Part shown: one piece after another, positions 13,326-26,740 of the stretch
How positions within the stretch are numbered: position 1 is the stretch's first letter
How the letters are laid out: each line of letters begins with the position of its first letter
Source: Vibrio vulnificus CMCP6
GTDB taxonomy: Bacteria > Pseudomonadota > Gammaproteobacteria > Enterobacterales > Vibrionaceae
Direction: 5' to 3'
Assembly (NCBI RefSeq): GCF_000039765.1
Contig: NC_004460.2
Coordinates: 300,001 to 332,000, forward strand
Length of the DNA: 32,000 nucleotides
Made by a program: the position numbers and the translations under genes
The notes under the pieces: model-generated
Seen by the model: only the letters and a program-made list of their open reading frames with translations
The model's database searches: none
What the model was told of the DNA's origin: nothing

Positions 13326-13637
13326 ATGACTCTTGTATATTCAACAGAAACAGGCCGAATCAAACCAGAAGAACCTAAAGCTTCGCGCCCAAAAGGCGAT
13401 GGTATTGTTCGAATTCAGCGAGAAACCAAAGGCCGAAAAGGCAAAGGGGTTTGCGTTGTCACTGGCTTGGATCTCGATGATGCTCCATTGAAGCTTCTCG
13501 CCGCAGAGTTGAAGAAAATCTGTGGTTGTGGTGGTAGTGTTAAAGATGGCAACATAGAGATTCAAGGTGATGCTCGTGACAAAATCAAAACGCATCTTGA
13601 AAAAAAAGGCATGAAAGTAAAATTTGCCGGCGGTTAA
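13326..13637 (+). CDS. yciH: SUI1-family translation initiation factor-like protein YciH
   Basis: 103 aa. LVYSTETGR... N-terminus and the SUI1 core (GIVRIQRETKGRKGKGVCVVTGL..., ..GGSVKDGNIEIQGD). Confidence 0.85.
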   Translation: MTLVYSTETGRIKPEEPKASRPKGDGIVRIQRETKGRKGKGVCVVTGLDLDDAPLKLLAAELKKICGCGGSVKDGNIEIQGDARDKIKTHLEKKGMKVKFAGG

Positions 13638-13952: not shown

Positions 13953-13980
13953 ATTTAACATAACGTACATAATGCGCACC
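13953..13980 (-). other. dif: dif chromosome dimer-resolution site (XerC arm - 6-bp centre - XerD arm)
   Basis: The minus strand reads GGTGCGCATTA-TGTACG-TTATGTTAAAT. As I remember them, E. coli dif is GGTGCGCATAATGTATATTATGTTAAAT and V. cholerae dif1 is AGTGCGCATTATGTATGTTATGTTAAAT, so the XerD arm is identical and the XerC arm differs by 1 nt. Confidence 0.85.
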
Positions 13981-14228
13981 AAAGCATTGGTTTTTAACAT
14001 TTCAAATATTTATCGAAATCCCGCAAATTTTATCCAGCTAAAACAATCACATAATACAACATATTGCATTGTAAAACCGTTTCGTTATCTCAAGTTATTA
14101 AGGCTGCACTATGAAAAGAAATGAACAAAATAATTCTTTTCGTCATTTGATAGCCCTTGGCAATCAAAACCCCTCGCAGCAATCGAAAATAACCATTAAT
14201 AACGCTGATAATTTGAGAGGTTTATCAC

Positions 14229-14651
14229 ATGGATTTTGAAGCCTTTAACGTCTTATTCTGGCGAGTGTTTCCAAGTATCAAAGCTGGCGCGGAATACTTC
14301 CACGTTCAACCCGCGACCGTTCGCCGCTGGCTTTCGGGCTCGATACCCATCAACCCAATGGCTGAAAAGCTGGTAATCATCAAATCCCTTGGCTATTTAC
14401 CTAATGATATTCGCTGGCGTGGCTTTCGTATTGATGAAGCCCGCGCGGTACTCATTACCCCTAGCGGGCGCGAGTTTTCGCCCAAAGAGTTGGAAGCCTT
14501 CGCCTATCAAAAAGACGAGTATCAACACTTTCTTGAGCAATACGAACGGCCACAAAGCCCCAAATATTACCCCGCAAAAGAGAACATTTTACCCTTTAAA
14601 GGCGGTCGCCGGATGACTGCCGCGCCTTGGATACCAAGCAAATTGAAGTAA
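14229..14651 (+). CDS. Phage HTH protein, DUF3653-like; candidate Xer activation factor (XafT-like)
   Basis: 140 aa. An HTH-like segment (AGAEYFHVQPATVRRWLSG) is followed by RWRGFRIDEARAVLITPSGREFSPKELEAF. It is the only + strand gene at this end, ~250 bp from dif. The family call is from memory only. Confidence 0.45.
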   Translation: MDFEAFNVLFWRVFPSIKAGAEYFHVQPATVRRWLSGSIPINPMAEKLVIIKSLGYLPNDIRWRGFRIDEARAVLITPSGREFSPKELEAFAYQKDEYQHFLEQYERPQSPKYYPAKENILPFKGGRRMTAAPWIPSKLK

Positions 14652-14653
14652 CA

Positions 14654-14681
14654 AAAAGGCCGCAATTAAGCGGCCTTTTTT
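14654..14681. terminator. Bidirectional intrinsic terminator
   Basis: AAAAGGCCGC / GCGGCCTTTT hairpin flanked by A- and T-runs, between convergent genes. Confidence 0.65.
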
Positions 14682-14703
14682 CATCCAGTTTTTCAAGTAA
14701 CTA

Positions 14704-15024
14704 TCAACCCCAAGCTCTCAATGCTTCATCATTCAATAACTCTGCGTGGTTTCCTATGATTGTTAAATGAATATGGGCTGCTGTGCTGTCTAATTGAACT
14801 CCATTATCACCAACCTTTAGAGCCCAAGACTCTAAATCGAACTTGTTTTTTAATCGGTGGATAAACAGATAAGCTGTACCTGGCTGAATGTATTGTGTGC
14901 TGTACGTTACATCAACAAAGCCTTTGGTATTAAGTTCATCAACGTTACTTTTTATAAAATATTCTATTTCGTTTTGAATCTCTTCAGCTTGACCCAAAAA
15001 AAAGTCTGTGGCGTTTCTTAACAT
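14704..15024 (-). CDS. Hypothetical 106-aa protein; low-GC stand-alone cargo gene
   Basis: The ATG at 15024 has AAGGAG 7 nt upstream (the track start at 15045 lacks an SD). It is bracketed by terminators at 14654-14681 and 15095-15127. I recognise no family. Confidence 0.6.
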   Translation of the reverse strand: MLRNATDFFLGQAEEIQNEIEYFIKSNVDELNTKGFVDVTYSTQYIQPGTAYLFIHRLKNKFDLESWALKVGDNGVQLDSTAAHIHLTIIGNHAELLNDEALRAWG

Positions 15025-15094
15025 AGCATTACTCCTTTTAATCATCGCTATAAGCTTAGATATGGGGGTCTTAGCAATGAAAGCAACTGCATAA

Positions 15095-15127
15095 AGAAAA
15101 AAACCGCAATTATGCGGTTTTTTTTTC
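15095..15127. terminator. Intrinsic terminator ending the long minus-strand structural operon
   Basis: AAACCGCA-ATTA-TGCGGTTT hairpin with an A-run on one side and a T-run on the other. It overlaps the stop codon of the last operon gene. Confidence 0.6.
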
Positions 15128-15256
15128 TAGCTCTGTGATTCGGCTATCCAGCTTTTCGAGTGTGAGCTTTATCCAAGCTATATCGACACGCAGCGCAACC
15201 ACCGTTGCAATACTGGACGCCGCACCCGTCACCACGGCAATTATGATTGTTTCCAT
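15110..15256 (-). CDS. 48-aa membrane protein (TM + short coiled-coil tail)
   Basis: METIIIAVVTGAASSIATVVALRVDIAWIKLTLEKLDSRITELEKKTA. The start is uncertain (the track gives 15322). It overlaps the upstream gene. Confidence 0.4.
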   Translation of the reverse strand: METIIIAVVTGAASSIATVVALRVDIAWIKLTLEKLDSRITELEKKTA

Positions 15257-15456
15257 TCCTTGCGCACCGTTTCCCACAAACCCAACATAAGGGGAACGGT
15301 TGTACCAATCAATCCGCCCCATTGAATACCCGCTTCGCTCACGCTGGCGGTGATCAATTCAGGGCGACCTATCGCCAGCGTTGCCCCCGCTGCGACCAGT
15401 GCCAAGCCTTTTTTGGTTGAAGGCTCTTTTAGTCGCTCTTTAATCCATTTTTCCAT
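15241..15456 (-). CDS. 71-aa two-TM membrane protein
   Basis: Hydrophobic segments GLALVAAGATLAIG and GGLIGTTVPLMLGLW. Tightly packed within the operon. Confidence 0.55.
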   Translation of the reverse strand: MEKWIKERLKEPSTKKGLALVAAGATLAIGRPELITASVSEAGIQWGGLIGTTVPLMLGLWETVRKEWKQS

Positions 15457-15459
15457 GGT

Positions 15460-15822
15460 TCACCTATCCATTAACTGATTTGTTATAGCCACATTGACCA
15501 GCGCGTGATATTGCGGTTTAAGCTGACCGCCACGCTTGCCAAAGAGTTCTTTTAAATACGGTTGATATTGGGCCACTTTCCACAAGGTAAAATCGGCCTC
15601 TGGCGTTAATCGCTTTTCATCGTCCAGATAGAAATCGCGAATCATGAGCGGGGCCAGTTCAACGGGTTCCCACCCGTTAAACTTGGCTAAAAAATCGCTC
15701 AATACCTTGCCCGCCGTTTGGGTATTGTCTGCCGTCCATTTATCAAGTGACGCGGTCACACTGCCCCGCATCGCCCAGACTGCCACGGCAACCCCCATCA
15801 ACCACCACGCCGCGCGGCTCAT
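15460..15822 (-). CDS. 120-aa protein with an N-terminal membrane anchor/signal
   Basis: The in-frame ATG at 15822 gives MSRAAWWLMGVAVAVWAMRG... It overlaps (ATGA) the stop of an upstream micro-ORF. The 41 extra N-terminal residues of the track version are W/C/H-rich and overlap other genes. Confidence 0.5.
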   Translation of the reverse strand: MSRAAWWLMGVAVAVWAMRGSVTASLDKWTADNTQTAGKVLSDFLAKFNGWEPVELAPLMIRDFYLDDEKRLTPEADFTLWKVAQYQPYLKELFGKRGGQLKPQYHALVNVAITNQLMDR

Positions 15823-15908
15823 AGCTTGCCCGCTTGATTTAACTTGCTTACCACCATTGCACCAAGCACCGTGCCAATGACACTCACCGCAATATTGATT
15901 GCTATCAT
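15819..15908 (-). CDS. 29-aa TM micro-ORF (MIAINIAVSVIGTVLGAMVVSKLNQAGKL)
   Basis: It fills the gap between the 161-aa gene stop (15917) and the 15822 start and is ATGA-coupled to the downstream gene. It has no strong SD. Confidence 0.35.
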   Translation of the reverse strand: MIAINIAVSVIGTVLGAMVVSKLNQAGKL

Positions 15909-15916
15909 TTTGCCAT

Positions 15917-16402
15917 TCATGCCAGCGCCACCCCTTGGCGGGCATCGTCTAGGGTGTACCACCCGCGCCCGACTTCCATTACCGACATGGCATAGACAAT
16001 GCTTGCCAACAATGCGTTATCAGAAAGGTTAACTTGCGCATCCGGTGATACGCCCACTTGCGCCGCGACAAATTCCGCATAGTTGTCACTTTTGTTTTCA
16101 TTGCTTGGCGCAAAGCGGTGAATCAACTCACGAATGGAGTTCAAGCCGTGTTTGTTTTGATATGTTCGCAGCGTTCGAGCGCCAGCGCGAAAGCCGTACT
16201 TTGGCGCGCTAAAGGTTTCGAAACGCTTATCCACCGAGGGCGTTACCTTGCCTAACCAGTTATTCGAGCGGTTTTGCTCGATGTTTAACGGGTTATTGGC
16301 ACGGACGCCGCGCGGCTTAGTGAGATCAACTAAGTTTGATTTGCTGTTTTTCACGATTACCCCCAAAGCCAGCAAAGATAAAACAACCACCGCAACTTTC
16401 AT
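15917..16402 (-). CDS. 161-aa membrane-anchored protein, possible cell-wall (muralytic) enzyme
   Basis: N-terminal TM (VAVVVLSLLALGVIV), then RANNPLNIEQ..W.G, which resembles the NNPGNI-type motif I associate with small phage/virion peptidoglycan-acting proteins. This is a weak assignment from memory. Confidence 0.4.
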   Translation of the reverse strand: MKVAVVVLSLLALGVIVKNSKSNLVDLTKPRGVRANNPLNIEQNRSNNWLGKVTPSVDKRFETFSAPKYGFRAGARTLRTYQNKHGLNSIRELIHRFAPSNENKSDNYAEFVAAQVGVSPDAQVNLSDNALLASIVYAMSVMEVGRGWYTLDDARQGVALA

Positions 16403-16405
16403 TGC

Positions 16406-17038
16406 TTATTCACCTTGTGGTAATGACTTGTAACTTTCCGGTAAATCGTTTTCCATCGCTTCGCCATAATAGAAAATGGTTCCCGAAATTCTTGTGCATG
16501 TAAAACCAGACGCCGCGCTTGCGATTATTTTCGTTGGTTCGCTTAGCATAGGGTGAGGGTCTGCCGGATTGCCCCACGTCATAAGGCCAAGCGAAGTAAA
16601 ACCGCTACATTTCAAACGCGCGCCCCCGCCTACATCATCCAAGCGTGGCAACTTTTGAAGCTCTCCCAATTGCGCCGAAGCCCAATACAATGCACCAGCA
16701 CGGGCCACGCTTGGGTCGCCTGTTACCCAAACATCCAGATTTACAAAGAGGTTTAGAACGGGCTCATTCACATACGGCGATGAACCTTCATAATTTTTTG
16801 ACAACTTGGCCAACGATATTTTTTTCATTTCGTTACTTGAGCCAGTGCCTACAATCAGCGATTCCATACCCTGCGAAATTAGAATTGCTTCCGCAACTTC
16901 CAACTCTCCGCTTGCCCCTACTTTAAAGGGCAGCACTACAGGCCCGCCGCCCCCGACGTTTTCAAGCGCCTTTTCGACAGATTCGGCCAACGCTTTTAGC
17001 TTGTTTTCCGTGTTTCCATTGCCTAAATCAAAAGCCAT
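16406..17038 (-). CDS. 210-aa soluble structural protein (possible vertex/receptor-binding component)
   Basis: It is coupled to the upstream spike-like gene (TAA-AGC-ATG with a GGAGA SD). It has no TM, and I recognise no family. Confidence 0.45.
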   Translation of the reverse strand: MAFDLGNGNTENKLKALAESVEKALENVGGGGPVVLPFKVGASGELEVAEAILISQGMESLIVGTGSSNEMKKISLAKLSKNYEGSSPYVNEPVLNLFVNLDVWVTGDPSVARAGALYWASAQLGELQKLPRLDDVGGGARLKCSGFTSLGLMTWGNPADPHPMLSEPTKIIASAASGFTCTRISGTIFYYGEAMENDLPESYKSLPQGE

Positions 17039-17041
17039 GCT

Positions 17042-17749
17042 TTAAATCTCCAATACCGCAATGCTGTTTGCTGCATCGCCTGTTAACTGAATTTCGGCGG
17101 TTGTCTCAAGCTCCAGCTTTTCGCCCGCCTCTAACGGATATGCGCCCGCCACCGTCACCGCCGCCGTGTTACCGCTTAGCGCTTTAATGGTGATTTTCTT
17201 GCGCCCTGCGTTGGCCGGAATGGTGTAAGGCATCGCATGAACGCCCGCCGCCAGTGAAGCCGATTTTTTCAGCTCGACCGCTGGCAAGCTGGACACACCG
17301 ACCGATTGGCCCGCCGCGATGGTCATTGCTGGAATACTCGAAACGTCTAGCGATTGGCCCGCCGCCAGTTGCATTTCTGGCAAGCTGGATACCTTAACCG
17401 TTTGATTTGCTGCCAACTCGACCGCTGGCAAGCTCGATACGTCCACCGTTGGCAATGCGGAAACTTCCACCGCTGGCAGCTCTGACACGGCTACCGTGTC
17501 ACGTTGTGGCGGCACGTATTCACCAAAGCCAACTTTTAGCTTTACATCCCCTTCAACGCCGCGATTTTCGACCGTCACCACCCCCGCCAAGCGTTCGCTT
17601 TTGACTTGCGCCCCTTGCGTTAACACGTAGTAACCGCCGCTTTGCGTAGTGATAAGCAGCTCACCCGCTGCTTTTTCCACGAAAAGAAAGTCACCAATTG
17701 CGGTAAAGTTATCGCGCGCACCTGTTAACATTCGTTTTTCAAAGCTCAT
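17042..17749 (-). CDS. 235-aa repeat-containing protein, putative spike/fibre
   Basis: The central third consists of VSxLPxxx 8-mers and 16-mers, flanked by beta-rich N- and C-terminal domains. Confidence 0.5.
   Translation of the reverse strand: MSFEKRMLTGARDNFTAIGDFLFVEKAAGELLITTQSGGYYVLTQGAQVKSERLAGVVTVENRGVEGDVKLKVGFGEYVPPQRDTVAVSELPAVEVSALPTVDVSSLPAVELAANQTVKVSSLPEMQLAAGQSLDVSSIPAMTIAAGQSVGVSSLPAVELKKSASLAAGVHAMPYTIPANAGRKKITIKALSGNTAAVTVAGAYPLEAGEKLELETTAEIQLTGDAANSIAVLEI
17270..17488 (-). repeat. In-frame tandem repeat (8/16-residue units) inside the spike-like gene
   Basis: VSELPAVE VSALPTVD VSSLPAVELAANQTVK VSSLPEMQLAAGQSLD VSSIPAMTIAAGQSVG VSSLPAVELKK. At DNA level, ACCGCTGGCAAGCT(G/C)GA recurs. 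Confidence 0.75.
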
Positions 17750-17753
17750 TTGA

Positions 17754-18224
17754 TTAACTCCGTGTCATTAGGTACGCAATGGAGATAGCCGCGAACGCGC
17801 CAATGGCAAGCTTTTTGGTTAACTCCGCATCTTCACGCTGTTCATTGGCTCCGTTGTCTTGTTTGAACTTCGCCAACTCCATCACCGCATTGAGATTTTC
17901 CGCATTTTGCGCGGCCTGACTGCCTGCAAGCCCCGCCATCATCGACAAGTTTTCCGAGTTGGTCGCGCTGTAGGTTTTGAGCGCATCCTTTGAAAAATCC
18001 GTCACACTCTTAACGGCATCCCCCGCCACACTTCCAAGCGTGGTCATGGACAACTCCGCAAGACTTCCCGCCGCCTCAATCGCACCGTGGTCAGTTGCGG
18101 TTACGTTGAGCGTTGAGTTGTTAATCCCACTAATCGCGGTTCCAAGGTTGTCGCCGCTAATGGCGTTTTGACCTGAGTTATTACTCGTGGTCGTGGTGTT
18201 CTTAGAACTTGATTTACCACCCAT
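17754..18224 (-). CDS. 156-aa S/T/N/A-rich protein with a C-terminal TM anchor
   Basis: Low-complexity N-terminus (SSKNTTTTSNNSGQN) and a C-terminal LAIGAFAAISIAYLM. Confidence 0.55.
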   Translation of the reverse strand: MGGKSSSKNTTTTSNNSGQNAISGDNLGTAISGINNSTLNVTATDHGAIEAAGSLAELSMTTLGSVAGDAVKSVTDFSKDALKTYSATNSENLSMMAGLAGSQAAQNAENLNAVMELAKFKQDNGANEQREDAELTKKLAIGAFAAISIAYLMTRS

Positions 18225-18228
18225 ATTT

Positions 18229-18600
18229 TTAAACTCGCATTGTCAGCGCGGTCACTTCTTCGCTTGGCTGCTTCTCGTTGGTGTGCAAAGGCTTTACCAA
18301 CCGAGCCAGCGCGGGAAAATAGGTTTCAGCGCTGATACTGTTTAAACCCAATCGGCGCACAACGGGCGCGAGCTCTTGCATGGCTTTCACGACGCCAACC
18401 CCCGACACTCCCCACAAAAAATAGGAATCGCCGACAATCTCCCCCGCAATCGTGACGTCATACCCTTCACCGTGTATTTGGTAGAGGCTGACATTGCCCG
18501 CCGACACTTCACCCTTTAAGGCTTCGAAGTCTTGCGGGCATTTTCTAAACGCCACTTTGAGCCGTTCCAGCGCGCCCGCTGGCTCCGCTAACTGAATCAT
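18229..18600 (-). CDS. 123-aa soluble hypothetical protein
   Basis: No TM. It overlaps the upstream gene by 4 nt. Function unknown. Confidence 0.55.
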   Translation of the reverse strand: MIQLAEPAGALERLKVAFRKCPQDFEALKGEVSAGNVSLYQIHGEGYDVTIAGEIVGDSYFLWGVSGVGVVKAMQELAPVVRRLGLNSISAETYFPALARLVKPLHTNEKQPSEEVTALTMRV

Positions 18601-18806
18601 TTTCGATTCATCATCATGAACGCCAACGCCAAGACCACGCCGCCAATCAATAACGGACTTACCCCCGTAGGGCTTCCCATATTAATCGCGCCGACACTTT
18701 GGCCGCTGTTGTTGGTACTGGTTGCGGTTGACGGGCCAGCATCGCCGCCACTAATTGGCATTGAACCGCTATTCGTCAACCCGCCGCCGATAAGAGAACC
18801 CAACAT
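18597..18806 (-). CDS. 69-aa Gly-rich membrane protein
   Basis: C-terminal TM (LLIGGVVLALAFMMM). Its start abuts the stop of the 50-aa ORF. Confidence 0.55.
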   Translation of the reverse strand: MLGSLIGGGLTNSGSMPISGGDAGPSTATSTNNSGQSVGAINMGSPTGVSPLLIGGVVLALAFMMMNRK

Positions 18807-18959
18807 TTACGCCCCCTTCACTGCGTGTTTATAAACCAGATAACCGCCGCCCACTAAAGCGGCCCCCATGACTAACTTTTTTGTTGTGCTTCCGGTGAAA
18901 TAGCCCGCACCAAAGCCCGCCGCCGCACCGATAAGTGGATATAAAATAAAAGGCATCAT
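18807..18959 (-). CDS. 50-aa two-TM Gly-rich micro-protein
   Basis: MMPFILYPLIGAAAGFGAGYFTGSTTKKLVMGAALVGGGYLVYKHAVKGA. It has a TAAGGGGGA-ATG junction with the upstream gene. It is below the ORF-track cutoff. Confidence 0.5.
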   Translation of the reverse strand: MMPFILYPLIGAAAGFGAGYFTGSTTKKLVMGAALVGGGYLVYKHAVKGA

Positions 18960-18965
18960 TCCCCC

Positions 18966-19259
18966 TTACTTACTTTTCAATGCGACAATCAAACCAATGA
19001 GCAACAAGCCACCCACGCCATACATGAGATATTTCTCATTCATGGATGCCGCCGGATTGCTTGGCGGCACTGGTGCGCCATTTGGCTGCACGGGTTGTTG
19101 CTCTGCTGGCTTGCGGTTTTCTTCCGGCGCGGCACTTTCCGCCTTTTGCGTGTTGGTCACTTTTGGGTCGAGTTTTCCGCTTACGTAATTGCCCGCCGCA
19201 TCCGTGACCGTCCCTGCAAAATTGGTTAGGTTTTCGCCCAGTGAATCCCAAAGAGACAT
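18966..19259 (-). CDS. 97-aa membrane protein (Pro-rich middle, C-terminal TM)
   Basis: C-terminal YGVGGLLLIGLIVAL. It has a TAAGGGGGCAAA-ATG junction with the capsid gene. Confidence 0.55.
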   Translation of the reverse strand: MSLWDSLGENLTNFAGTVTDAAGNYVSGKLDPKVTNTQKAESAAPEENRKPAEQQPVQPNGAPVPPSNPAASMNEKYLMYGVGGLLLIGLIVALKSK

Positions 19260-19268
19260 TTTGCCCCC

Positions 19269-20111
19269 TTACGCCGTGGCGGTCGGTAGCGCTTTGACTT
19301 GCTCGACTGCTTCAAACACAACCGGAACCGCGCCCGCTTGTGATTTTTCCAGCTCAAACGCGAGTTGCTGGCTTGCTGCCGTGTTCAACACACCGTCAGC
19401 ACCGAAGCCGTAACGGGTAAAGTCCACACTAAACCAGCCCGCATTTTGCTCTTGACCGCAAGCGGCAAGGTCGTAAGCGTTGTCTAGTTTGTTGGCGTTG
19501 TATTCTTCGATGTTGTCACGCAACACACGCACACGCTCAACCGACTCATCCATAAAATGCGCACGTTTTAGGTTTAAGAACGGGCTACGCTCTGCAAAGT
19601 CAAACGGGATACGGCCCGCCGCTGGCGCGTTCCAAGTCAGCTCAATGATGCGCGGCAAGTAGAAACGCTCGCTTTGTGCTGGCAGCACATGAGCACGGGC
19701 GCGGATACTTGGCACCGCTGGCGCGCCTTCGCTTGGCGTTTGTTTGAGTTGCACGTAAATAAACCAGATTTCGCCTTGCAGCGTCACGAGATCAGTTTGA
19801 CGAACACCAACTTTTGTACGGTATTCTGATTCACCAAAATCAATGACGTATCGGCCTTGCTCGTTGTAGGTCTTTTTGTGCTTTTGGATGTTGACGAACG
19901 TTTTACCGCTGGCGCTCATAATTGGACGGCCATTCAACTGGATTTCAATTCGTTCAATATCTTCCGGATTGGTGATATTTGTGACCAACTCAATGCTGTG
20001 ATAAGTCGGGCCCGTTACCAAACGTAGATTTGCACGTTGGCCCCAGCCAACGCCTTCCATTGGGTCTAGCTCTTTTGCGCGTGGTGCAAATGGTGTGCTG
20101 ATAATTTCCAT
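19269..20111 (-). CDS. Putative major capsid protein (PM2 P2-like, double jelly-roll candidate)
   Basis: 280 aa from the ATG at 20111 (GGGG 6 nt upstream; the track uses GTG 20117). The size, beta-rich composition and position between the ATPase and the membrane-protein cluster fit the corticovirus layout. The assignment is not verified by alignment. Confidence 0.5.
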   Translation of the reverse strand: MEIISTPFAPRAKELDPMEGVGWGQRANLRLVTGPTYHSIELVTNITNPEDIERIEIQLNGRPIMSASGKTFVNIQKHKKTYNEQGRYVIDFGESEYRTKVGVRQTDLVTLQGEIWFIYVQLKQTPSEGAPAVPSIRARAHVLPAQSERFYLPRIIELTWNAPAAGRIPFDFAERSPFLNLKRAHFMDESVERVRVLRDNIEEYNANKLDNAYDLAACGQEQNAGWFSVDFTRYGFGADGVLNTAASQQLAFELEKSQAGAVPVVFEAVEQVKALPTATA

Positions 20112-20124
20112 ACTCACCCCCGCC

Positions 20125-20235
20125 TTAACCGATCACGTCTTCGACTGCATCAACGTTGTTTGATGCCCAAACCACACCCGCCGCGATTAGCGCGCTAAGT
20201 CCGAGCAAAATTAAATTGCCTTTTGTTAATTTCAT
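20125..20235 (-). CDS. 36-aa TM micro-protein
   Basis: MKLTKGNLILLGLSALIAAGVVWASNNVDAVEDVIG. GGAG SD present. The stop lies 13 nt before the capsid ATG. Confidence 0.45.
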   Translation of the reverse strand: MKLTKGNLILLGLSALIAAGVVWASNNVDAVEDVIG

Positions 20236-20252
20236 TGCTTTACGCTCCAAAT

Positions 20253-20281
20253 AAAAAAACCGCTGTTCATTAGCGGTTTTT
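20253..20281 (-). terminator. Intrinsic terminator-like hairpin between the ATPase and capsid modules
   Basis: The minus strand reads AAAACCGCT-AATGAAC-AGCGGTTTTTTT. It lies only 17 nt upstream of the next start codon. Confidence 0.5.
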
Positions 20282-20341
20282 ATCTTTGCCCGATATTCAC
20301 AACGGTTTGTAAATGCGGATTTAGAATCCTTGATTCTATTT

Positions 20342-20357
20342 TGTGAACTTATTCACA
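20342..20357. promoter_or_regulatory. CRP-like palindrome TGTGA-N6-TCACA
   Basis: TTTTGTGAACTTATTCACATTT has both core half-sites perfect. It sits immediately after the ATPase stop codon. Confidence 0.4.
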
Positions 20358-20358
20358 T

Positions 20359-21027
20359 TTACCAGCGTATTAGCCCCGCTTCGTACCCTTTGCCGTTCTG
20401 GTGCAAGTAGTGAAGCGGTTGTAAATCATTGATAACCGCCGAAGGAATGCCCGTCATTTTTTCTAAATACACGGCACTTGCTCCGGTCTTTTGCATCATG
20501 ACGTACATGTGTTGACAGTTATCAATAATGGTTTTTGAAACTTCTTGCCCACGCTGGAAAAGGTTTATTGTGTGGATGCCATACGAACGCCCCAAGCGCA
20601 ACAACTTGCCATGATAGCCCGTCGCTTTGCCCGCCGTTTCGCTGTGCTCTGCAACTTCCTCACAAACCACTTTCAACGGTTTGACATGATGCCCGTCACC
20701 ACACCCCCAAACGATTTGACAAAACTTGTCAAAATCGGCGGGTTTTGTGTCGCCTTTTTTTAAATCCGGTTGCCACGCAATTTTAAATCCTTGCTTGGTT
20801 TTTCGGCCTGCAACCACCGCTTGAGCAAAGCGGCTAAACGAGTGATACACGCGCACCACTCGCCCCAGCAACTCACCGTCATATTCTCGCTTTGGGTCAA
20901 AAATCACGACTTGGTCAGTCGCTTTTACTAAGCGTTTTTTGACAAGCGAGCTTTTGCCACACCCCGACATTCCCACAACGGCGGTATGCTCATTTTTCAA
21001 TGCGTTGTTATTGCGTCGCGGCTGCAT
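20359..21027 (-). CDS. Genome-packaging ATPase candidate (PM2 P9 / PRD1 P9-like size class)
   Basis: 222 aa from the ATG at 21027 (AGGGGG 5 nt upstream). Walker A is GMSGCGKSS, followed by a hydrophobic strand plus Asp (QVVIFDP). It has no TM, unlike Zot/pI of filamentous phages. Confidence 0.65.
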   Translation of the reverse strand: MQPRRNNNALKNEHTAVVGMSGCGKSSLVKKRLVKATDQVVIFDPKREYDGELLGRVVRVYHSFSRFAQAVVAGRKTKQGFKIAWQPDLKKGDTKPADFDKFCQIVWGCGDGHHVKPLKVVCEEVAEHSETAGKATGYHGKLLRLGRSYGIHTINLFQRGQEVSKTIIDNCQHMYVMMQKTGASAVYLEKMTGIPSAVINDLQPLHYLHQNGKGYEAGLIRW

Positions 21028-21499
21028 GAGCACCCCCTTGCGCCTTTGCCGCCTGAATGATTGCGGCGCGTTTTAGCGCTTCTTCTTTCTGAATTTCTTG
21101 CATCATGGCGTATTTGCCAAAGCCAATAATTGACACGGTCGCTAGCAAGGTGAGTTCAGGCCCATACTCTGCCAACCACGGCGGCGGCTCCGCACCGTAT
21201 TTGATCAACACGGGGGCGATTGCTCCGGTTAGTTGGGTTTCTTCTTGCTCATCGAATGACAAACGTTTGTCTTTGGCTTTTAGAATCCCATTGACAAAAC
21301 CCACCCCTTTTGCCGCAAATGGCAGCACCGCCTCAAGCGTTGCGGCTTGCTGCTTTAGCGCTGCTTCCCGTTGCGCCTTATCTTCAATCGTGATTTCGGC
21401 GTCTTCTTCCATTTCCAATTGATTTAGAAAATCCTTTTCCTCATCGGTGTATTCTTTTTCTAAATCCGTTGCCTGTTCGTTTAGTCGTTCTTCATCCAT
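21008..21499 (-). CDS. 163-aa protein: acidic coiled-coil N-terminus, hydrophobic C-terminal half
   Basis: MDEERLNEQATDLEKEYTDEEKDF... followed by ..LTLLATVSIIGFGKYAM. It has an 8-nt overlap with the upstream gene. Confidence 0.55.
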   Translation of the reverse strand: MDEERLNEQATDLEKEYTDEEKDFLNQLEMEEDAEITIEDKAQREAALKQQAATLEAVLPFAAKGVGFVNGILKAKDKRLSFDEQEETQLTGAIAPVLIKYGAEPPPWLAEYGPELTLLATVSIIGFGKYAMMQEIQKEEALKRAAIIQAAKAQGGAHAAATQ

Positions 21500-21848
21500 T
21501 GTTTGCCCCTAGCACTTTGGCGGTTACATTTCCCAACAAAAAGCAAAAGCCACCAATGAGAAACTTTGCGGCGTTGCTGTTTGCTGACGTTGTTGTTTTG
21601 TTGTTTTGCGGTTCCGGTTCCGGTACGGGCTCTGTCACTGGCTCCGGCGTTGGTTTAAGCATTTGCTCGACTTCTTCCAACGGCTTGTAAGTGGCAAAAT
21701 ACGCTTGAATATCTTCACCCGTTCGACAATCCGGCCCACACTTACACCGAGCCCTTAAAAAGCGCGCGCGCTTGCCTTGCCCCTGAATGATTTTTTTAGG
21801 TGTTTTGCATTTCGAGCAAGGGAGATAACCTAAAATTTCTTCATCCAT
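21492..21848 (-). CDS. 118-aa protein: N-terminal Cys4 zinc-ribbon-like motif, Pro/Glu linker, C-terminal TM
   Basis: CSKC...(17 aa)...CKCGPDC, then PTPEPVTEPVPEPEP, then FLIGGFCFLLGNV. Confidence 0.55.
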   Translation of the reverse strand: MDEEILGYLPCSKCKTPKKIIQGQGKRARFLRARCKCGPDCRTGEDIQAYFATYKPLEEVEQMLKPTPEPVTEPVPEPEPQNNKTTTSANSNAAKFLIGGFCFLLGNVTAKVLGANNG

Positions 21849-22071
21849 TGCTCACCTCTTGCAGCTTTTTCACTTCTTGTTTCAAGGTTTCGATTTCTTC
21901 ATTCTGCACTTGCAGCAAAACGATGATTTTTCGCCCAAAGGAATTGAAAAAATCCCGAATCGGGTTTAGAAACTTTCCAAAAATCGGGTTGCCTACGTGC
22001 GCGCCGATTTCCTCTACCGCGCCCGCCATTTCTTTTTTAATTTCGCCGAGTAATAAAGCCTTTTTATTCAT
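21841..22071 (-). CDS. 76-aa hypothetical protein
   Basis: AAGGAAG SD upstream. Coiled-coil-like C-terminus (LQVQNEEIETLKQEVKKLQE). Confidence 0.5.
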   Translation of the reverse strand: MNKKALLLGEIKKEMAGAVEEIGAHVGNPIFGKFLNPIRDFFNSFGRKIIVLLQVQNEEIETLKQEVKKLQEVSNG

Positions 22072-22102
22072 TTCTAGCCACTTCCTTTTATTTCAATTGC
22101 TC

Positions 22103-24091
22103 TTAGTGATACAAAGCTCCCGCGCGCTGATACAAATCCCAAAACGCCGAACGCTCCGCCTCGATAACTTCCGGCCTGATGTTGTAGGGCTCAAACGGCT
22201 CTGCCTTGACCGACTCCCACCAAGCTTGATTGTCTAAAAATTGCTTATATTGCATTTGATATTGCTCTTGCGCCGCTTCGCGCAAATCTTCCATTTCTAT
22301 ATCGCTGTAAATCGGTTTCATCGACCAGCCACGCGCACCCGCCGCCCATTTCAAAAACTGGTTAACCCTACGCTCTGCGTTTTTCTCAAACGTGATTGAA
22401 AAGCGGTTATTGGCGCTGACATGTAGCCCCGCTGCTTTTGTTGCTGCTCTTGCGTTTTTCAAACCGTTTTCAATTCGCTTGATTTTGGTTTGCAATTTCG
22501 TTTGTAAATCCACATCACCTTTTGCTTTGGCGATTGCTGCCGCTTCAATGCTTTTTTCTTTGGCTTGCTCATAGCGCTTGATGCTGCGCTTAATTGGCGC
22601 TTTCCATTGGTCGAGCTTGTAGCCTAACTCGCTGATAATGCCCGCCATGTTATCCGCTTCGAAACTCAGCAAGGTTTCCCACTTTGGCGCACGGCTACAC
22701 GCTGCCATGTTGTAACGATTGCCCCGAATAAGCCCTTGATTGGCGTTTTCTCCTTTGGCTGCATAGCCCACCGCTTTAATGATGTAAGTCCCTGCCGCCT
22801 CTGGCTTTTTGATGCGCTCAACATGCGCAAAGCCATTACCCCAAAGGCTCTCAATTTTTCCAGCCCACGCACTAAAAAGCGCTTGCGGCATTTCCCAATC
22901 CATCAACAAGTGAACGTGCGGATTCGGCTCACCGTCCTCATTGGCTGGACACTCCGCCACCCAAAGGTAATGAAAGTCCGATTTATCCGGCAATACGCTT
23001 GCTTTGACCGCTGGCACTGGACAAAACAAACGCCCGCTTTCGCTGTCGCGCTCTGTCACGTAGGCCGGAAAGCCGCGCTTTCTCATCTTTTTGAGGCCAT
23101 TAATAAAACGCGATACCTCCGCGCCTATCGTGGTGTGCATGTTCACCACTTCCCAAACCTTTTCAGGCTTGGCAAAAAGTGGCGTATATGGCCCCGCAAT
23201 TTCGCCGCTTTCGTTCATGGCCTTGATGTTGCGGATTTTTCCCTTGTACCACTCAAACGCGCTATATGGCCCCGCCACCTCTGACACACACACGCCAAAA
23301 TTTTGCTTGAACCCAACAGGCGAAAACAAAAGCCCCTCATCGGTGAGCGCGGAACCGTCAGCCACACGGCGGCGGCGTTCTTCATCAAACGTCAGCGTGA
23401 TGAACGTTTTGAACCCGCCATGCTTCACCGCGACATACGCGCCGGACTCAAAAATATTTTTCACCGCGCGGGCGGTTAATTTTTCCGTGAAGCGGTCGCC
23501 GCTTTGCTGCTCCGGTGCATTGCTGGCTGGCGTTTCAATCACTTGCTGAATTCGGTATTGCTGCGACCAATCGCGCTTTTGCAATTGCACCTTTACCAGT
23601 GGCTTATCTGCCACCAATGACCGCTTTTTATTGCTGTTTAGTGCAGTGCCGCGCGATACCGCCGAAAATGACGCGCTGTAGTGCGCGCTGTGATATTTTT
23701 CAGGATTTAATACTAGGGGCGCTTTTATCGACTTTCTCAGCGTTGCCAAGCGTTGGCGGAAGCGTTTAGAGGCTTCATAACCCACCTTTCCCGCTGTCCG
23801 ACTTTTGCGCCCTTTGACTAGCCTATTATCTCCGGCACTTCGTGCCGCCGCTTCGCGCAGGTGTCCCGCGATCGTTTTAATGCGTAACGGGGTGAGTTGC
23901 TCTGCATCTTTTAAGATGGTTTGTTGCTGTTCATTCCACTGAGAAAAATCGGATGCAAAAAAACCGCTACGAATAGCGGTAAGGTTCTTTCTTGCCTTAT
24001 CGGATTGCCGAAGCGCTCCAACTGCGTATAGAACTGTGTTTTTATCCAGTGGCGCAAATTGGCTTGCGCTAAACTTTGCTATTTGGTTCAT
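22103..24091 (-). CDS. Rolling-circle replication initiator (HUH endonuclease superfamily Rep)
   Basis: 662 aa. Motif 1-like FITLTF, motif 2 (HUH) PHVHLLMDW and motif 3 with Tyr residues TYIIKAVGYAAKG occur in the correct order. The size is close to PM2 P12 as I recall it. Confidence 0.75.
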   Translation of the reverse strand: MNQIAKFSASQFAPLDKNTVLYAVGALRQSDKARKNLTAIRSGFFASDFSQWNEQQQTILKDAEQLTPLRIKTIAGHLREAAARSAGDNRLVKGRKSRTAGKVGYEASKRFRQRLATLRKSIKAPLVLNPEKYHSAHYSASFSAVSRGTALNSNKKRSLVADKPLVKVQLQKRDWSQQYRIQQVIETPASNAPEQQSGDRFTEKLTARAVKNIFESGAYVAVKHGGFKTFITLTFDEERRRRVADGSALTDEGLLFSPVGFKQNFGVCVSEVAGPYSAFEWYKGKIRNIKAMNESGEIAGPYTPLFAKPEKVWEVVNMHTTIGAEVSRFINGLKKMRKRGFPAYVTERDSESGRLFCPVPAVKASVLPDKSDFHYLWVAECPANEDGEPNPHVHLLMDWEMPQALFSAWAGKIESLWGNGFAHVERIKKPEAAGTYIIKAVGYAAKGENANQGLIRGNRYNMAACSRAPKWETLLSFEADNMAGIISELGYKLDQWKAPIKRSIKRYEQAKEKSIEAAAIAKAKGDVDLQTKLQTKIKRIENGLKNARAATKAAGLHVSANNRFSITFEKNAERRVNQFLKWAAGARGWSMKPIYSDIEMEDLREAAQEQYQMQYKQFLDNQAWWESVKAEPFEPYNIRPEVIEAERSAFWDLYQRAGALYH

Positions 24092-24286
24092 CTATGCAAA
24101 CACCATAAAGCGGCGGTTTTTGTCTATCTCAATCACCGCCGTATTACCTGCCATTGATTTAACTGCGTTTCCGGTGTGATTCTCACACTCTGCAATTGCG
24201 CGAAAGAAATTGCGCGAAGGCTTGAACGGCAACGGCTCACCCGTTGGTAAACATTTGTTGTTATCCCAGATTTCAACCGTTGCCAT
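24092..24286 (-). CDS. 64-aa hypothetical protein
   Basis: Its stop TAG directly abuts the Rep ATG. Confidence 0.45.
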   Translation of the reverse strand: MATVEIWDNNKCLPTGEPLPFKPSRNFFRAIAECENHTGNAVKSMAGNTAVIEIDKNRRFMVFA

Positions 24287-24290
24287 ATGA

Positions 24291-24467
24291 TCACCCCACT
24301 GACGCCCAGTTAAAAATAAAGGTCATGCAACCAACCACTGCCCAAGCCGACACAATTGCATTTCCTAAATCACTAAAACTAAAGATAAAAGGTGTTGGGT
24401 TGTAATCACGCCCCATCAAGAAACAAAAAAAGCCAATAAGGAACACCCCTAGAATTGAAAGGCTCAT
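24291..24467 (-). CDS. 58-aa two-TM micro-protein
   Basis: MSLSILGVFLIGFFCFLMGRDYNPTPFIFSFSDLGNAIVSAWAVVGCMTFIFNWASVG. ATGA overlap with the upstream 177-aa gene. It is below the ORF-track cutoff. Confidence 0.45.
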   Translation of the reverse strand: MSLSILGVFLIGFFCFLMGRDYNPTPFIFSFSDLGNAIVSAWAVVGCMTFIFNWASVG

Positions 24468-24997
24468 TGAACTCTCTCCCCAAGCTCTCTCAATCCACCT
24501 CTAGGCGAATTCAAATCCTCTAATTGGTCATTCCATGCAAAGAAACCTTTGCATTTTGGATGCGACACTAACGAATCCGCCGGATATTTCTCGATAACTT
24601 CTACCTGTTCACCCGCCTTAATAATTAAGTCAGTATGAATATGATGATCACATCTAAGAATTTTCTTAACTGCATGAGAAGATTCCGCGCCATCAACGGC
24701 CAATGCCTCCGGCGCTTCCTCTTGCTTGCGGATTTGGTTTCTATTTCGCTGTTCAATGAGCTTTAATCTCATTTTTAAATTCGTTTTTAGATTTGCGGCA
24801 TCTTCAAATCTAAGTGTCCCCCACCGATTTTTAATAACACGTTCAATCAGTGTGCAAAGCTTTACTGCTCGTACTGGCGATAATATTGACTGTTGAATCT
24901 CATCCAACACAATAAAAGCGCCATTAAGCGAACCGCGCTTAAATGCATCTTCCGTTTCAACAACTAGCTTTCTAAATTCTTTTGATGATTTAATCAT
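24464..24997 (-). CDS. 177-aa hypothetical early protein
   Basis: Low-GC ORF with no TM. I recognise no family. Confidence 0.55.
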   Translation of the reverse strand: MIKSSKEFRKLVVETEDAFKRGSLNGAFIVLDEIQQSILSPVRAVKLCTLIERVIKNRWGTLRFEDAANLKTNLKMRLKLIEQRNRNQIRKQEEAPEALAVDGAESSHAVKKILRCDHHIHTDLIIKAGEQVEVIEKYPADSLVSHPKCKGFFAWNDQLEDLNSPRGGLRELGERVQ

Positions 24998-24998
24998 G

Positions 24999-25205
24999 CT
25001 ACACCCCCACGCTTTGAACGTTTGATCGGCGTATCATGGCAAGCTGATAAGCGCGCTTAAATTCCGCCTGACCTTTGCGAGAAAAGCGATAATCTTTGCC
25101 GCCGGACTTCTTACACTGGTAGCCGTTGGGGAAATATTTCTGTTTGAGGTTTTCGAGAATGTTGAGCCCTGTATCAGTGGGCTGATGTGAATGTGTTCTT
25201 TCCAT
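24999..25205 (-). CDS. 68-aa basic protein, first gene of the leftward operon (Cro/regulator-like position)
   Basis: GGAGG lies 7 nt upstream of the ATG at 25205. I prefer it over the overlapping 96-aa ORF 25034..25324. Confidence 0.5.
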   Translation of the reverse strand: MERTHSHQPTDTGLNILENLKQKYFPNGYQCKKSGGKDYRFSRKGQAEFKRAYQLAMIRRSNVQSVGV

Positions 25206-25346
25206 GTTCTAGCCTCCGCAAGCCGTTTCACATTTGTTTCGCTAATACGATATGGCAAGTTTTTTGTAGGCGCAATTAGCTTGCGGTAGTGAAACGAACA
25301 AAATGATCGCCTATGATTTAACAAATTGCGGACGGAGATAAACTCA

Positions 25347-25613
25347 ATGATGAACTACACAAATGCACTTTTAGACCGCCTAAAAGCCAAGCTAGAACTG
25401 GGCTCAGACTATCAATTAGCTAAAGTTTTAGAGGTTGGTACTAGTAGAATCAGCAACTACCGCAACGGGCGCAGTGTTCTAGATTGGAATATAGCGTTTA
25501 AAATCGCCGATTTGTTAGAAGAAGATGATCAAAAAGTCGTCTTTGGATTGCTTGAGGATAAATACTCAAACCCTCGCCTAATCAATGCCTTACAAGAGGG
25601 CGCGCCCCATTAG
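25347..25613 (+). CDS. HTH transcriptional regulator, repressor-like, divergent from the phage operon
   Basis: An HTH-like segment (SDYQLAKVLEVGTSRISNYRNGRS) is present. The ATG at 25347 has GGAG 9 nt upstream (the track uses TTG 25326). The stop lies 5 nt before the right att site. Confidence 0.6.
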   Translation: MMNYTNALLDRLKAKLELGSDYQLAKVLEVGTSRISNYRNGRSVLDWNIAFKIADLLEEDDQKVVFGLLEDKYSNPRLINALQEGAPH

Positions 25614-25618
25614 CGCCC

Positions 25619-25646
25619 ATTTACCACATCGTACATAATGCGCACT
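25619..25646 (-). other. dif-like hybrid site (intact XerC arm and centre, degenerate XerD arm)
   Basis: The minus strand reads AGTGCGCATTA-TGTACG-ATGTGGTAAAT. The XerD arm has 3/11 mismatches to TTATGTTAAAT. It is in the same orientation as dif at 13953-13980. Confidence 0.75.
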
Positions 25647-25861
25647 TATAATTGTAAGTGCCAGTTAGTAATGTCCGGTTTAGCCACTTTAAAATGTCCT
25701 CCCAAAATTAACAACATTGTTTGCTTTCGAGGCTTTAGCCGATGTTGATTACGACGAGTGAAAAAGACATTTATCGATTTGGGGTTCTGTCTGTCGTCCG
25801 TACAAGGCAGTTACGTCTAGTTGATGTTGCAGTCACTCTAGCTGTTTTGTTTGTAATATCT

Positions 25862-26086
25862 GGCGAACACTTAATCGACGCTCCACTTTAGGAGATCAAA
25901 GTCTCGCGCACGTTGCTCGTATATGATTGCCCGCCTGATGAACTTAAGGTTCAGCGAAACCGAGTCAAATGCTAACAACGAGAGAATATCTTAATGAATA
26001 CGGCAAGCCCGTCGCGTTCTACTGCGATAAGCATTCGATTTTTCGCGTGAATCAGGAAAAGCAAAAACAACTAGCCATGTTTTAAG
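25862..26086 (+). pseudogene. Remnant of an IS transposase (DDE/rve type; resembles the ISNCY/IS1202 group as I recall it)
   Basis: Pieces in shifting frames read GEHLIDA.., ..RTLLVYD, ARLMNLRFSETES and REYLNEYGKPVAFYCDKHSIFRVNQEK. Only ~75 of an expected ~450 residues remain. Family memory only. Confidence 0.45.
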
Positions 26087-26107
26087 AGATGTACCGCCTA
26101 GCAACTC

Positions 26108-26143
26108 AAAAGCCGAGCATCAGGTATGACGCTCGGCTTTTTC
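26108..26143 (+). terminator. Intrinsic terminator-like hairpin after the IS remnant
   Basis: AAAAGCCGAGC / GCTCGGCTTTT stem with a 12-nt loop and a T-rich tail. Confidence 0.45.
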
Positions 26144-26632
26144 GAGGAGCCAGGTTGGATATGCCCTGACATAAGAAATGTACCCAAAATCGCTTCGCTG
26201 AGTAAAACGTTAATAATAAGCTTTAGACGTAACTCAAGATAAACTGCTAATTATTACCTATTCAATTCAACCCAGCACGACTCAACTCACACCAGCTCAT
26301 TTGATCAACTTTGATCAATTCTCACTCTTTCTCAATACCGAATTTTTTCATTAATCATTTTAGACATTCGTTAAATTTTCAAAGTTTATACACTCTAATC
26401 TTGAATTATAAAGGAACCACATAAGAGTAAGTACTTACAGCGTAACTTAGTGCACTTCTCAACATTTTATGCTGCACCAATTACTGCTCACAAACTCACC
26501 CTGTAATTTAATTACACAACAGACGTTACACTGTGTCAGAACAGCAAAACGGACCAACATAAACTGTTGATATATAAGAAAAGAAATCACCACCCCCTAT
26601 CCAGCATCAAATCACACCACCCACCTAAAGAT

Positions 26633-26671
26633 TCAGGTAAAGGTAATTGGTAAAAGTTTTACCTGATTTTT
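26633..26671 (+). terminator. Orphan plus-strand terminator-like hairpin (no ORF upstream)
   Basis: TCAGGTAAA (26633-26641) pairs with TTTACCTGA (26658-26666), followed by TTTTT. Confidence 0.35.
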
Positions 26672-26677
26672 AATGTC

Positions 26678-26705
26678 AAAAAAAAGCAGAACCAAAAGGT
26701 TCTGC
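26678..26705 (-). terminator. Intrinsic terminator after yoaH
   Basis: The minus strand reads GCAGAACC-TTTT-GGTTCTGC followed by TTTTTTTT. Confidence 0.65.
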
Positions 26706-26740
26706 TTCGTTTCATTGGTTGATTTAGAGAAAGTAGATAC

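Follow-up and report, generated by a model that had tools for sequence, protein, structure and literature searches.

We analyzed a 32,000-nucleotide stretch of chromosome II of Vibrio vulnificus CMCP6 (NC_004460.2, positions 300,001–332,000; hereafter the window, numbered from its first letter) and followed up one element in it, at positions 13953–25646. The element is very probably an intact temperate corticovirus-like (Vinavirales) phage that lies in dif2 and was integrated through XerC and XerD, which its host supplies as recombinases, with its terminal protein p15 probably activating XerD. As part of that explanation, and with the same confidence, the gene content predicts an icosahedral, tailless, membrane-containing phage whose genome is a circle of double-stranded DNA (dsDNA) of ~11.67 kb. 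A first-pass annotation, made from the letters of the window, had already proposed a membrane-containing icosahedral dsDNA lineage that uses XerCD, and the anatomy described below supports it; each refuting condition that it had named was decided in favour of the proposal. Its caution about novelty was justified as well: the class of dif-type double jelly-roll (DJR) prophages was published between 2023 and 2025 (PMC9966536, PMC11630473, PMC12715192), and the element is not new in kind.

The element lies between two directly repeated dif-like 28-mers, for which 100 shuffles gave 0 matches. These were found at the expected positions, 11.67 kb (~11.7 kb) apart, in agreement with the ~11.6 kb first proposed. 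The left site, attL (13953–13980, plus strand), reads ATTTAACATAA-CGTACA-TAATGCGCACC; the XerD arm comes from the chromosome and is canonical, and the phage supplied the XerC arm. The right site, attR (25619–25646, plus strand), reads ATTTACCACAT-CGTACA-TAATGCGCACT; its XerD arm is phage-derived and degenerate (8/11) and its XerC arm is chromosomal. The two hybrid sites have 17 identical bases in common. The GC content of the element is 47–53% compared with 38–44% in the flanks, and nearly all of its genes are on the minus strand. A flanking SUI1-family protein (13326–13637) is found unaltered in many V. vulnificus chromosome II records, e.g. YJ016 (BA000038), in which the locus lies at ~48% of the replicon, consistent with the replication terminus.

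Seven strains without the element (L003–L008 and L010 in our numbering of compared loci) have one site only in the interval from the SUI1 gene to the UPF0181 gene. This site is exactly ATTTAACATAACGTACATAATGCGCACT in five of the seven, with a one-base difference in the other two. ATTTAACATAACGTACATAATGCGCACT consists of the attL XerD arm, the common centre and the attR XerC arm, and it fits the published Vibrio dif consensus, ATTTAACATAA(N)6TAATRCGHASY (PMC12715192). When the element was removed in silico, the joined flanks gave a gapless alignment of 1834 bp with strain L006, at 99.84%. This alignment and the empty-site sequence show an exact insertion, with junctions that combine dif2 and attP as reciprocal hybrids. 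The element is thus inserted precisely in dif2 of V. vulnificus chromosome II, as had been claimed, and insertion beside dif instead of in dif was rejected. The search for empty dif sites and other copies proposed with that claim gave the seven empty strains and two occupied ones, L011 and L012, with the copy at the same dif2.

The attP inferred from the two junctions is ATTTACCACAT-CGTACA-TAATGCGCACC. Compared with dif2, it matches at 8/11 positions of the XerD arm, 6/6 of the central region and 10/11 of the XerC arm. In the circular form the order would be p16, attP, p15, all on one strand, and the predicted junction is ...GCGCCC ATTTACCACATCGTACATAATGCGCACC AAAGCATTGG... After integration, attL agrees with native dif2 at 27 of 28 positions. 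Only the final position differs (T to C), and the attP of the vibriophage NO16 also ends in C. Judged from its sequence, attL presumably serves the lysogen as its functional dif.

The element encodes no site-specific recombinase or transposase, which bears out the first-pass annotation. We scanned the 22 open reading frames (ORFs) of at least 90 amino acids (aa) on either strand with Pfam, and no tyrosine recombinase, serine recombinase or DDE transposase was found; a missed integrase on the opposite strand was rejected by the same two-strand scan. Direct repeats that are dif hybrids at a chromosomal dif, together with the lack of a recombinase of its own, are the features of integrative mobile elements that exploit Xer (IMEXs). 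The element does encode an HUH endonuclease, and attL and attR do share their 17-bp core, so we considered integration by its own HUH Rep or by short-homology recombination at this core, with no part for host Xer. We regard this as highly improbable. RecA does not recombine efficiently over as little as 17 bp, and the arms have been swapped exactly, inside a 28-bp XerC/XerD site that lies at the dimer-resolution locus. The same anatomy recurs in other species with differing central regions. Moreover, integrase-type relatives with a different HUH Rep have an integrase in three cases where one was detected or annotated (L024, L025 and L034).

The gene nearest attL is p15 (14229–14651, plus strand), a terminal gene which starts 248 bp from attL, has a candidate promoter at 14183–14212 and encodes a 140-aa XafT-like protein. 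It matched Pfam DUF3653 at 3.3e-18 (66 bits; cut-off 22.4). It is 62% identical to NO16 gene 7 and 65% identical to the terminal gene of the V. cyclitrophicus prophage PQ189336. DUF3653 is the domain by which XafT of the V. cholerae satellite TLCΦ activates XerD without FtsK, and DUF3653 proteins cluster beside dif in many genomes (PMC6744903). XafT consists of an XRE helix-turn-helix (HTH) and DUF3653, whereas in p15 no HTH reached significance with Pfam. A PDB sequence search with p15 gave only a spurious 17.7-bit adenosylhomocysteinase match and no XafT structure. The homologues NO16 gene 7 (L022, 3558–3989) and that of PG21 (L023, 1–417) are labeled "S-adenosylhomocysteine hydrolase"; this label seems to rest on the same spurious similarity, the real domain being DUF3653.

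The other terminal gene, p16 (25326–25613, plus strand), encodes a 95-aa XRE/CI-type HTH repressor. It matches NO16 gene 6 at 1e-34, has weak Pfam HTH_3 and Phage_CI_repr matches, and corresponds to the P16/RstR-like repressor of Ma and Zhang (PMC12715192). From the gene arrangement, a divergent promoter/operator region at 25206–25325 would serve p16 and the early operon, with a candidate promoter at 25289–25317. The first-pass annotation had counted p15 as part of its divergent HTH switch; p15 is a DUF3653 protein.

A DUF3653 protein beside attL and a degenerate attP XerD arm together indicate TLCΦ-like integration. As in TLCΦ, the att site has a DUF3653 gene beside it, and attP combines a non-canonical XerD arm with a centre and XerC arm that match dif; the XerD arm of TLCΦ attP binds XerD poorly (PMC6744903). 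The attP centre identical to dif2, the near-perfect XerC arm and the degenerate XerD arm make p15 a probable XerD activator, and by analogy with XafT it is a candidate for the phage-encoded factor of this kind. TLCΦ likewise lacks a recombinase and regenerates a usable dif on integration; it differs as a filamentous-phage satellite with single-stranded DNA (ssDNA) virions (PMC6744903, PMC9226527). Alternatively, the element could be an IMEX of the CTXΦ/VGJΦ kind, in which a single pair of strands is exchanged, by XerC alone, the junction is then resolved by replication, and p15 acts as a transcription regulator only. PM2 P15 is indeed described as a transcription factor of the leftward operon (PMC1950889), XerC has basal activity on dif sites (PMC6744903), and the XerC arm and central region are the best-conserved parts of attP. 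However, the strong DUF3653 match of p15 and the clustering of such proteins beside dif in many genomes speak against this. The attP centre is fully identical to dif2 and tracks the host dif across species, which fits a complete two-strand exchange better than an XerC-only one. Nor is attP a folded ssDNA hairpin; it is an ordinary site in double-stranded DNA. An XerC-only route leaves the host-tracking centre and DUF3653 unexplained; it is less likely than the p15/XerD route, and we consider it unlikely in its own right.

Four points weigh against integration by XerC/XerD with the help of p15. The relation of p15 to XafT is at the level of the domain only, and the identity is reported as ~29% (PMC12715192). 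A literature search gave no experiment on XerC/XerD or p15 dependence for any DJR phage. Steensen et al. called the question inconclusive, since integrases are present in some tailless prophages at dif (PMC11630473). Finally, the predicted attP junction (ACCACATCGTACATAATGCGCACCAAAGCATTGG) had 0 matches in IMG/VR and JGI metagenome contigs.

With these points in mind, the p15/XerD route would proceed as follows. Host XerC and XerD would recombine attP with dif2, and p15, through its XafT domain, would probably activate XerD without FtsK for both integration and induced excision. Integration would leave a working dif, attL, and chromosome dimers would still be resolved. The poor XerD arm of attR should shield the prophage from FtsK-driven loss at each division, as has been argued for the gonococcal genetic island. 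After excision the HUH Rep would drive rolling-circle replication of the circle, the P9-like ATPase would package the DNA into P2-type capsids lined with phage membrane proteins, and a P5-like hydrolase with a P17-like holin would free the virions. We are evenly divided on a stronger proposal, that p15 is a true XafT-type XerD activator in a lytic-capable dsDNA membrane phage and that p16-attP-p15 and the NO16-type Rep move as a cassette. Because integration separates p15 from p16, p15 would in that case link the induction of the prophage with its excision by Xer. The lysogeny/replication cassette would also move from one capsid lineage to another, as well as between DJR phages and filamentous ones.

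The capsid gene (19269–20111, minus strand) encodes a 280-aa protein. As shown by sequence comparison, it belongs to the PM2 P2 double jelly-roll family, as the capsid candidate of ~280 aa had suggested. It matched Pfam P2_N at 2.4e-44 and P2_C at 5.6e-39, both far above the cut-offs, and PHROG 8536 ("major head protein") at 2.6e-88. With hhalign, a profile of the PM2, NO16 and PG21 capsids gave 97.4% probability over 253 columns. The only PDB sequence matches were PM2 P2 (2vvf/2w0c) and one other DJR capsid, and V. cyclitrophicus prophage capsid proteins are 60% identical. An exact-protein look-up of the 282-aa version with a GTG start found nothing on record, and the 280-aa version was found.

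The packaging ATPase (20359–21033, minus strand) has 224 aa from a GTG start, or 222 aa in the other annotation. Its matches were PM2 P9 (1.8e-15), PHROG 2666 (2e-39) and Pfam DUF87/HerA, with HerA as the best PDB matches. The Walker-A ATPase of the earlier description is thus of the P9 kind. A Zot/pI-type ATPase, which would have pointed to a filamentous phage, was rejected, as the protein groups with HerA/FtsK/P9. Upstream to downstream, the ATPase gene is followed by a 108-nt gap with a hairpin, a 41-aa gene and the capsid gene, the same layout as in PM2. The gap (20251–20358, minus strand) contains a terminator hairpin (20281–20255) and is the only one of its length in the gene train; it is equivalent to the conserved non-coding region with the PM2 late promoter between genes IX and VII (PMC1950889). 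The 41-aa single-transmembrane (TM) protein (20125–20250, minus strand) is in the position of PM2 P7 by synteny and its TM segment. A P2-type capsid, a HerA/FtsK ATPase and a small gene with a non-coding gap before the capsid gene are the features of a corticovirus-like phage.

The Rep gene (22103–24091, minus strand) encodes a 662-aa rolling-circle (HUH) replication initiator of the NO16 type. It matched Pfam REP_ORF2-G2P (HUH) at 31 bits, PHROG 38601 at 1.6e-129 and NO16 gene 3 at 1e-116. Its HUH and Tyr motifs align with PM2 P12, but the overall similarity is not significant (BLASTP E = 0.19), and a PDB sequence search gave no match. Hence the HUH Rep of the first-pass annotation held, and its P12 type gave way to the NO16 type.

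The remaining virion and lysis genes are also on the minus strand. The P5-like peptidoglycan hydrolase/transglycosylase (15917–16402, 161 aa) matched PM2 P5 at 2e-27 and PHROG 873 endolysin at 7e-50, with a TM segment at residues 1–19 as an N-terminal membrane anchor. A 161-aa structural protein (15460–15945) is like NO16 gene 10 (phmmer 5.6e-38), which is annotated as structurally similar to PM2 P6. The 156-aa gp j-like structural protein (17754–18224) matched PM2 gp j at 3e-6 and NO16 at 6e-7 with phmmer, as well as PHROG 12546. Four small structural/membrane proteins (18229–19259; 123, 69, 50 and 97 aa) take the positions of PM2 P8/P4/P3 by synteny. The 69-aa protein matched PM2 P8 at 7e-4, and the 69-aa and 97-aa proteins have TM segments. 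Two small late genes lie at 15110–15456. One encodes a 70-aa single-TM protein that is holin-like, is probably ~48 aa long, and matched PM2 gp k at 6e-5 with phmmer and the PG21 and V. cyclitrophicus phages at ~1e-10; we take gp k to be P17, the product of PM2 gene XVII. The other encodes 71 aa, and the equivalent region of L011 is annotated as 71-aa and 48-aa genes.

The spike or vertex candidate (17042–17749, minus strand, 235 aa) matched PHROG 12829 at 1.8e-44. As first described, it bears repeats: about six 8-residue units (VSSLPAVE-like), encoded by 24-nt tandem repeats at 17270–17496. Next to it, also in a spike or receptor-binding position, is a variable 210-aa protein (16406–17038, minus strand) for which no homologue was found in Pfam, PHROGs or the compared phages. 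In L011 and L012 it is swapped for an unrelated 168-aa protein. It is likely the host-range determinant.

The gene order follows that of PM2, including the lone non-coding gap before the small gene and the capsid gene. Gaps from gene to gene are mostly -8 to +13 nt, consistent with the translational coupling of the small genes noted earlier. The count of "at least 10 small membrane proteins" was roughly right: eight pass a strict hydropathy cut-off and 3–4 more are glycine-rich and hydrophobic. The 8–12 small hydrophobic proteins would fit the predicted internal membrane, and reciprocal attP × dif recombination implies the circle, of which no junction was found in the IMG/VR or JGI contigs.

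Could the element be a decaying, immobile remnant that entered at dif once and has lost excision or virion formation? The circular junction missing from the public contigs would fit this, and attR, with its degenerate XerD arm, could trap the element in place. On the other side, all genes syntenic with PM2 are intact and tightly packed. The copies in other strains are 97–100% identical in the core and yet differ in cargo and receptor-binding genes. The site itself is polymorphic, being empty, occupied by this phage, or ~105 bp away from a filamentous array, and relatives of the NO16 type are spontaneously induced (PMC9966536). A remnant is therefore quite improbable, and an intact temperate phage is the explanation that we prefer.

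The Logan contig SRR8466848_497 (locus L040), from a public short-read assembly, matched the window from 25645 down to 19615 at 99.98%. With its end at L040 position 1, it stops one base short of 25646, the sole base separating attR (T) from attP or attL (C). This end could reflect an assembly-graph branch from excised or tandem copies in that sample, or chance alone.

Near-identical copies at the same dif2 are present in V. vulnificus L011 and L012; their core proteins are 97–100% identical, and they differ in cargo and receptor-binding genes. At the L011 junctions (4256–4283 and 16037–16064), one centre is CGTACA and the other CGCACA, a change of a single base, and G/A variants occur in the XerC arms. 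These differences hint that recombination tolerates a central mismatch or that a heteroduplex segregated.

To find further relatives, we searched for loci of the same capsid clade with a three-sequence capsid alignment; a seven-sequence one was too divergent. The layout from p16 to p15 was also found in V. agarilyticus, Vibrio sp. EA2, Vibrio sp. 99-70-13A1 and V. cyclitrophicus PQ189336. On the p15 side, the junctions detected in V. agarilyticus and Vibrio sp. EA2 have a canonical XerD arm and the phage XerC arm. On the p16 side the XerD arm is degenerate in V. agarilyticus, Vibrio sp. 99-70-13A1 and V. cyclitrophicus. Only in V. agarilyticus and V. vulnificus L011 could the two junctions both be detected. 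The central region varies with the host (GATACA, TATACA or CGTACA).

In the same clade, L024, L025 and L034 (V. variabilis) have an integrase and a P2 gpA-type Rep, without p15 or a dif-like site. L030 and L033 also have a P2 gpA-type Rep and no p15 or dif-like sites, and no integrase was detected in them. Thus an integrase was detected or annotated in three of the five non-dif loci. Over the clade (L011, L012, L024, L025 and L029–L037), the Rep type co-segregates with the integration module: eight loci combine the NO16-type Rep with p16, p15 and dif, and five combine the P2 gpA-type Rep with a non-dif location. It appears that the genes for replication and lysogeny are swapped together, as a single unit. 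The element is then a mosaic of an NO16-like lysogeny/replication block (p16, attP, p15 and Rep) and a capsid/ATPase block from another Vibrio lineage. By sequence relationship, the latter block is from the clade that elsewhere carries an integrase.

The two sources are visible when the element is compared with known phages. NO16 (proposed "Asemoviridae", MH730557; 10.6 kb) has homologues of Rep (1e-116), p16 (1e-34), p15 (6e-59) and the P6-like protein (6e-38). Its attP, GTTTACCACAT-TATACA-TAATGCGCACC, begins six bases after the p16 homologue and lies 250 bp before the p15 homologue. The arms and position are as in the element; the difference is mainly in the central region, each matching its own host. 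In contrast, the capsid (phmmer 7e-4) and ATPase (5e-11) are only distantly related to those of NO16. The closest capsid (60%) and ATPase (67% identity), in the same structural order, are those of the integrase-type tailless Vibrio prophages PQ189334 and PQ189369 (PMC11630473). These differ in having a tyrosine integrase and an excisionase, as well as a LexA-like repressor and a Rep of the P2 gpA type, and they lack a dif-like site and p15.

With PM2 (Corticoviridae), the element has in common a P2-family capsid, a P9-type ATPase, homologues of P5, gp j and gp k, and gene order. PM2, however, is regarded as lytic, and its Rep, P12, is not detectably similar overall. The dif-like site of PM2 keeps the XerD arm, whereas the attP of the element keeps the XerC arm. 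As Rep compared with P12 gave E = 0.19 and the capsid similarity is at profile level only, sequence comparison places the element as a relative of PM2 outside the genus Corticovirus.

This reading has precedents in print. In 2007, Krupovic and Bamford listed a PM2-like prophage of 11,383 bp on CMCP6 chromosome 2 (314236–325618), flanked by genes XV and XVI and with a gene XVII homologue (PMC1950889). The p15-to-p16 span in the window is 11,385 bp and a gp k homologue is present, so the element is probably that prophage; the 2007 paper did not recognize dif integration. Kalatzis et al. in 2023 proposed XerCD integration of NO16 via dif-like sites and described its virions as tailless, chloroform-sensitive and spontaneously induced (PMC9966536). 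Steensen et al. in 2024 found a few tailless V. cyclitrophicus prophages at dif (PMC11630473). Ma and Zhang (Commun Biol 2025, PMC12715192) curated 258 DJR prophages, of which 160 were "dif-type" and were called IMEXs, with p16/RstR and p15/XafT at the termini and a variable region beside p15.

The element shares with these dif-type prophages the lack of an integrase, dif-like attL and attR at dif-1 or dif-2, the p16 and p15 termini, variable cargo between p15 and the lysis genes, and PM2 synteny. Their size is ~12.9 ± 1.0 kb, and the 11.67 kb of the element is at the small end. In its XerD arm, ATTTACCACAT, attR departs at two positions from the full-length motif given for them, NYKNWMCATAA, and the element would accordingly count as "right-armed" type. 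The first-pass annotation had named filamentous phages and their satellites as the well-studied Xer exploiters at dif. This was incomplete, as non-phage IMEXs exist, e.g. the gonococcal genetic island (PMC6744903).

DJR prophages at dif would carry the hijacking of Xer beyond filamentous ssDNA phages to dsDNA phages that are lytic-capable and contain a membrane, a point already in print in 2023–2025. Such phages are very common in marine Vibrio and place defence and virulence cargo beside dif. The window adds a well-resolved example in a human pathogen, with exact attL and attR, an inferred attP, sister strains whose site is empty, a gene of the XafT-like kind and a host-tracking attP core. 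A clean, single-copy, integrase-less V. vulnificus prophage would be a good system for a first experimental proof of p15/Xer dependence.

The early region holds seven more genes on the minus strand. Three early/middle genes (21008–22071; 163, 118 and 76 aa), with overlapping starts and stops, are in the position of PM2 P13/P14/gp h and have PG21 and V. cyclitrophicus prophage homologues. Four early genes follow the repressor region (24092–25205; 64, 58, 177 and 68 aa). The 58-aa protein has two TM segments, and the only family match among the four was PHROG 27990 for the 177-aa protein.

At the other end, beside p15, is the cargo slot. A variable-region ORF of 113 aa (14704–15045, minus strand) is flanked by two hairpin terminators. 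The terminator between p15 and this ORF (14655–14678; repeat family D5/D7, AAAGGCCGCAATTAAGCGGCCTTT) could be bidirectional. No homologue of the 113-aa protein was found in Pfam, PADLOC or the compared phages, and an exact look-up found nothing on record; PADLOC likewise returned no match for the other uncharacterized ORFs. The slot holds other genes in L011 and an NLR-like defence gene in V. cyclitrophicus PQ189336, and it lies where the pHVR has been described, from p15 to the lysis genes (PMC12715192).

A megablast of the whole element against phage records gave one 64-bp match only, with no close nucleotide relative deposited, and Rfam gave no match in the whole window. To the right of dif2, neither a convincing ORF nor an Rfam match was found in the ~1.1 kb at 25647–26740. 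The empty-site strains have this stretch too, and it is therefore native chromosome, not an IMEX remnant.

To the left, YJ016 and one other strain carry a filamentous prophage array (Rep_trans and DUF1293 genes) ~105 bp from dif2. The array sits at an inverted dif-like site (L001 10448/19164 and L002 10447/14803), with an intact dif2 to its right. When empty, as in the equivalent L003 10436–10463 (minus strand), this site reads ATTTACCATAA-AATACC-TAATATAGAAC.

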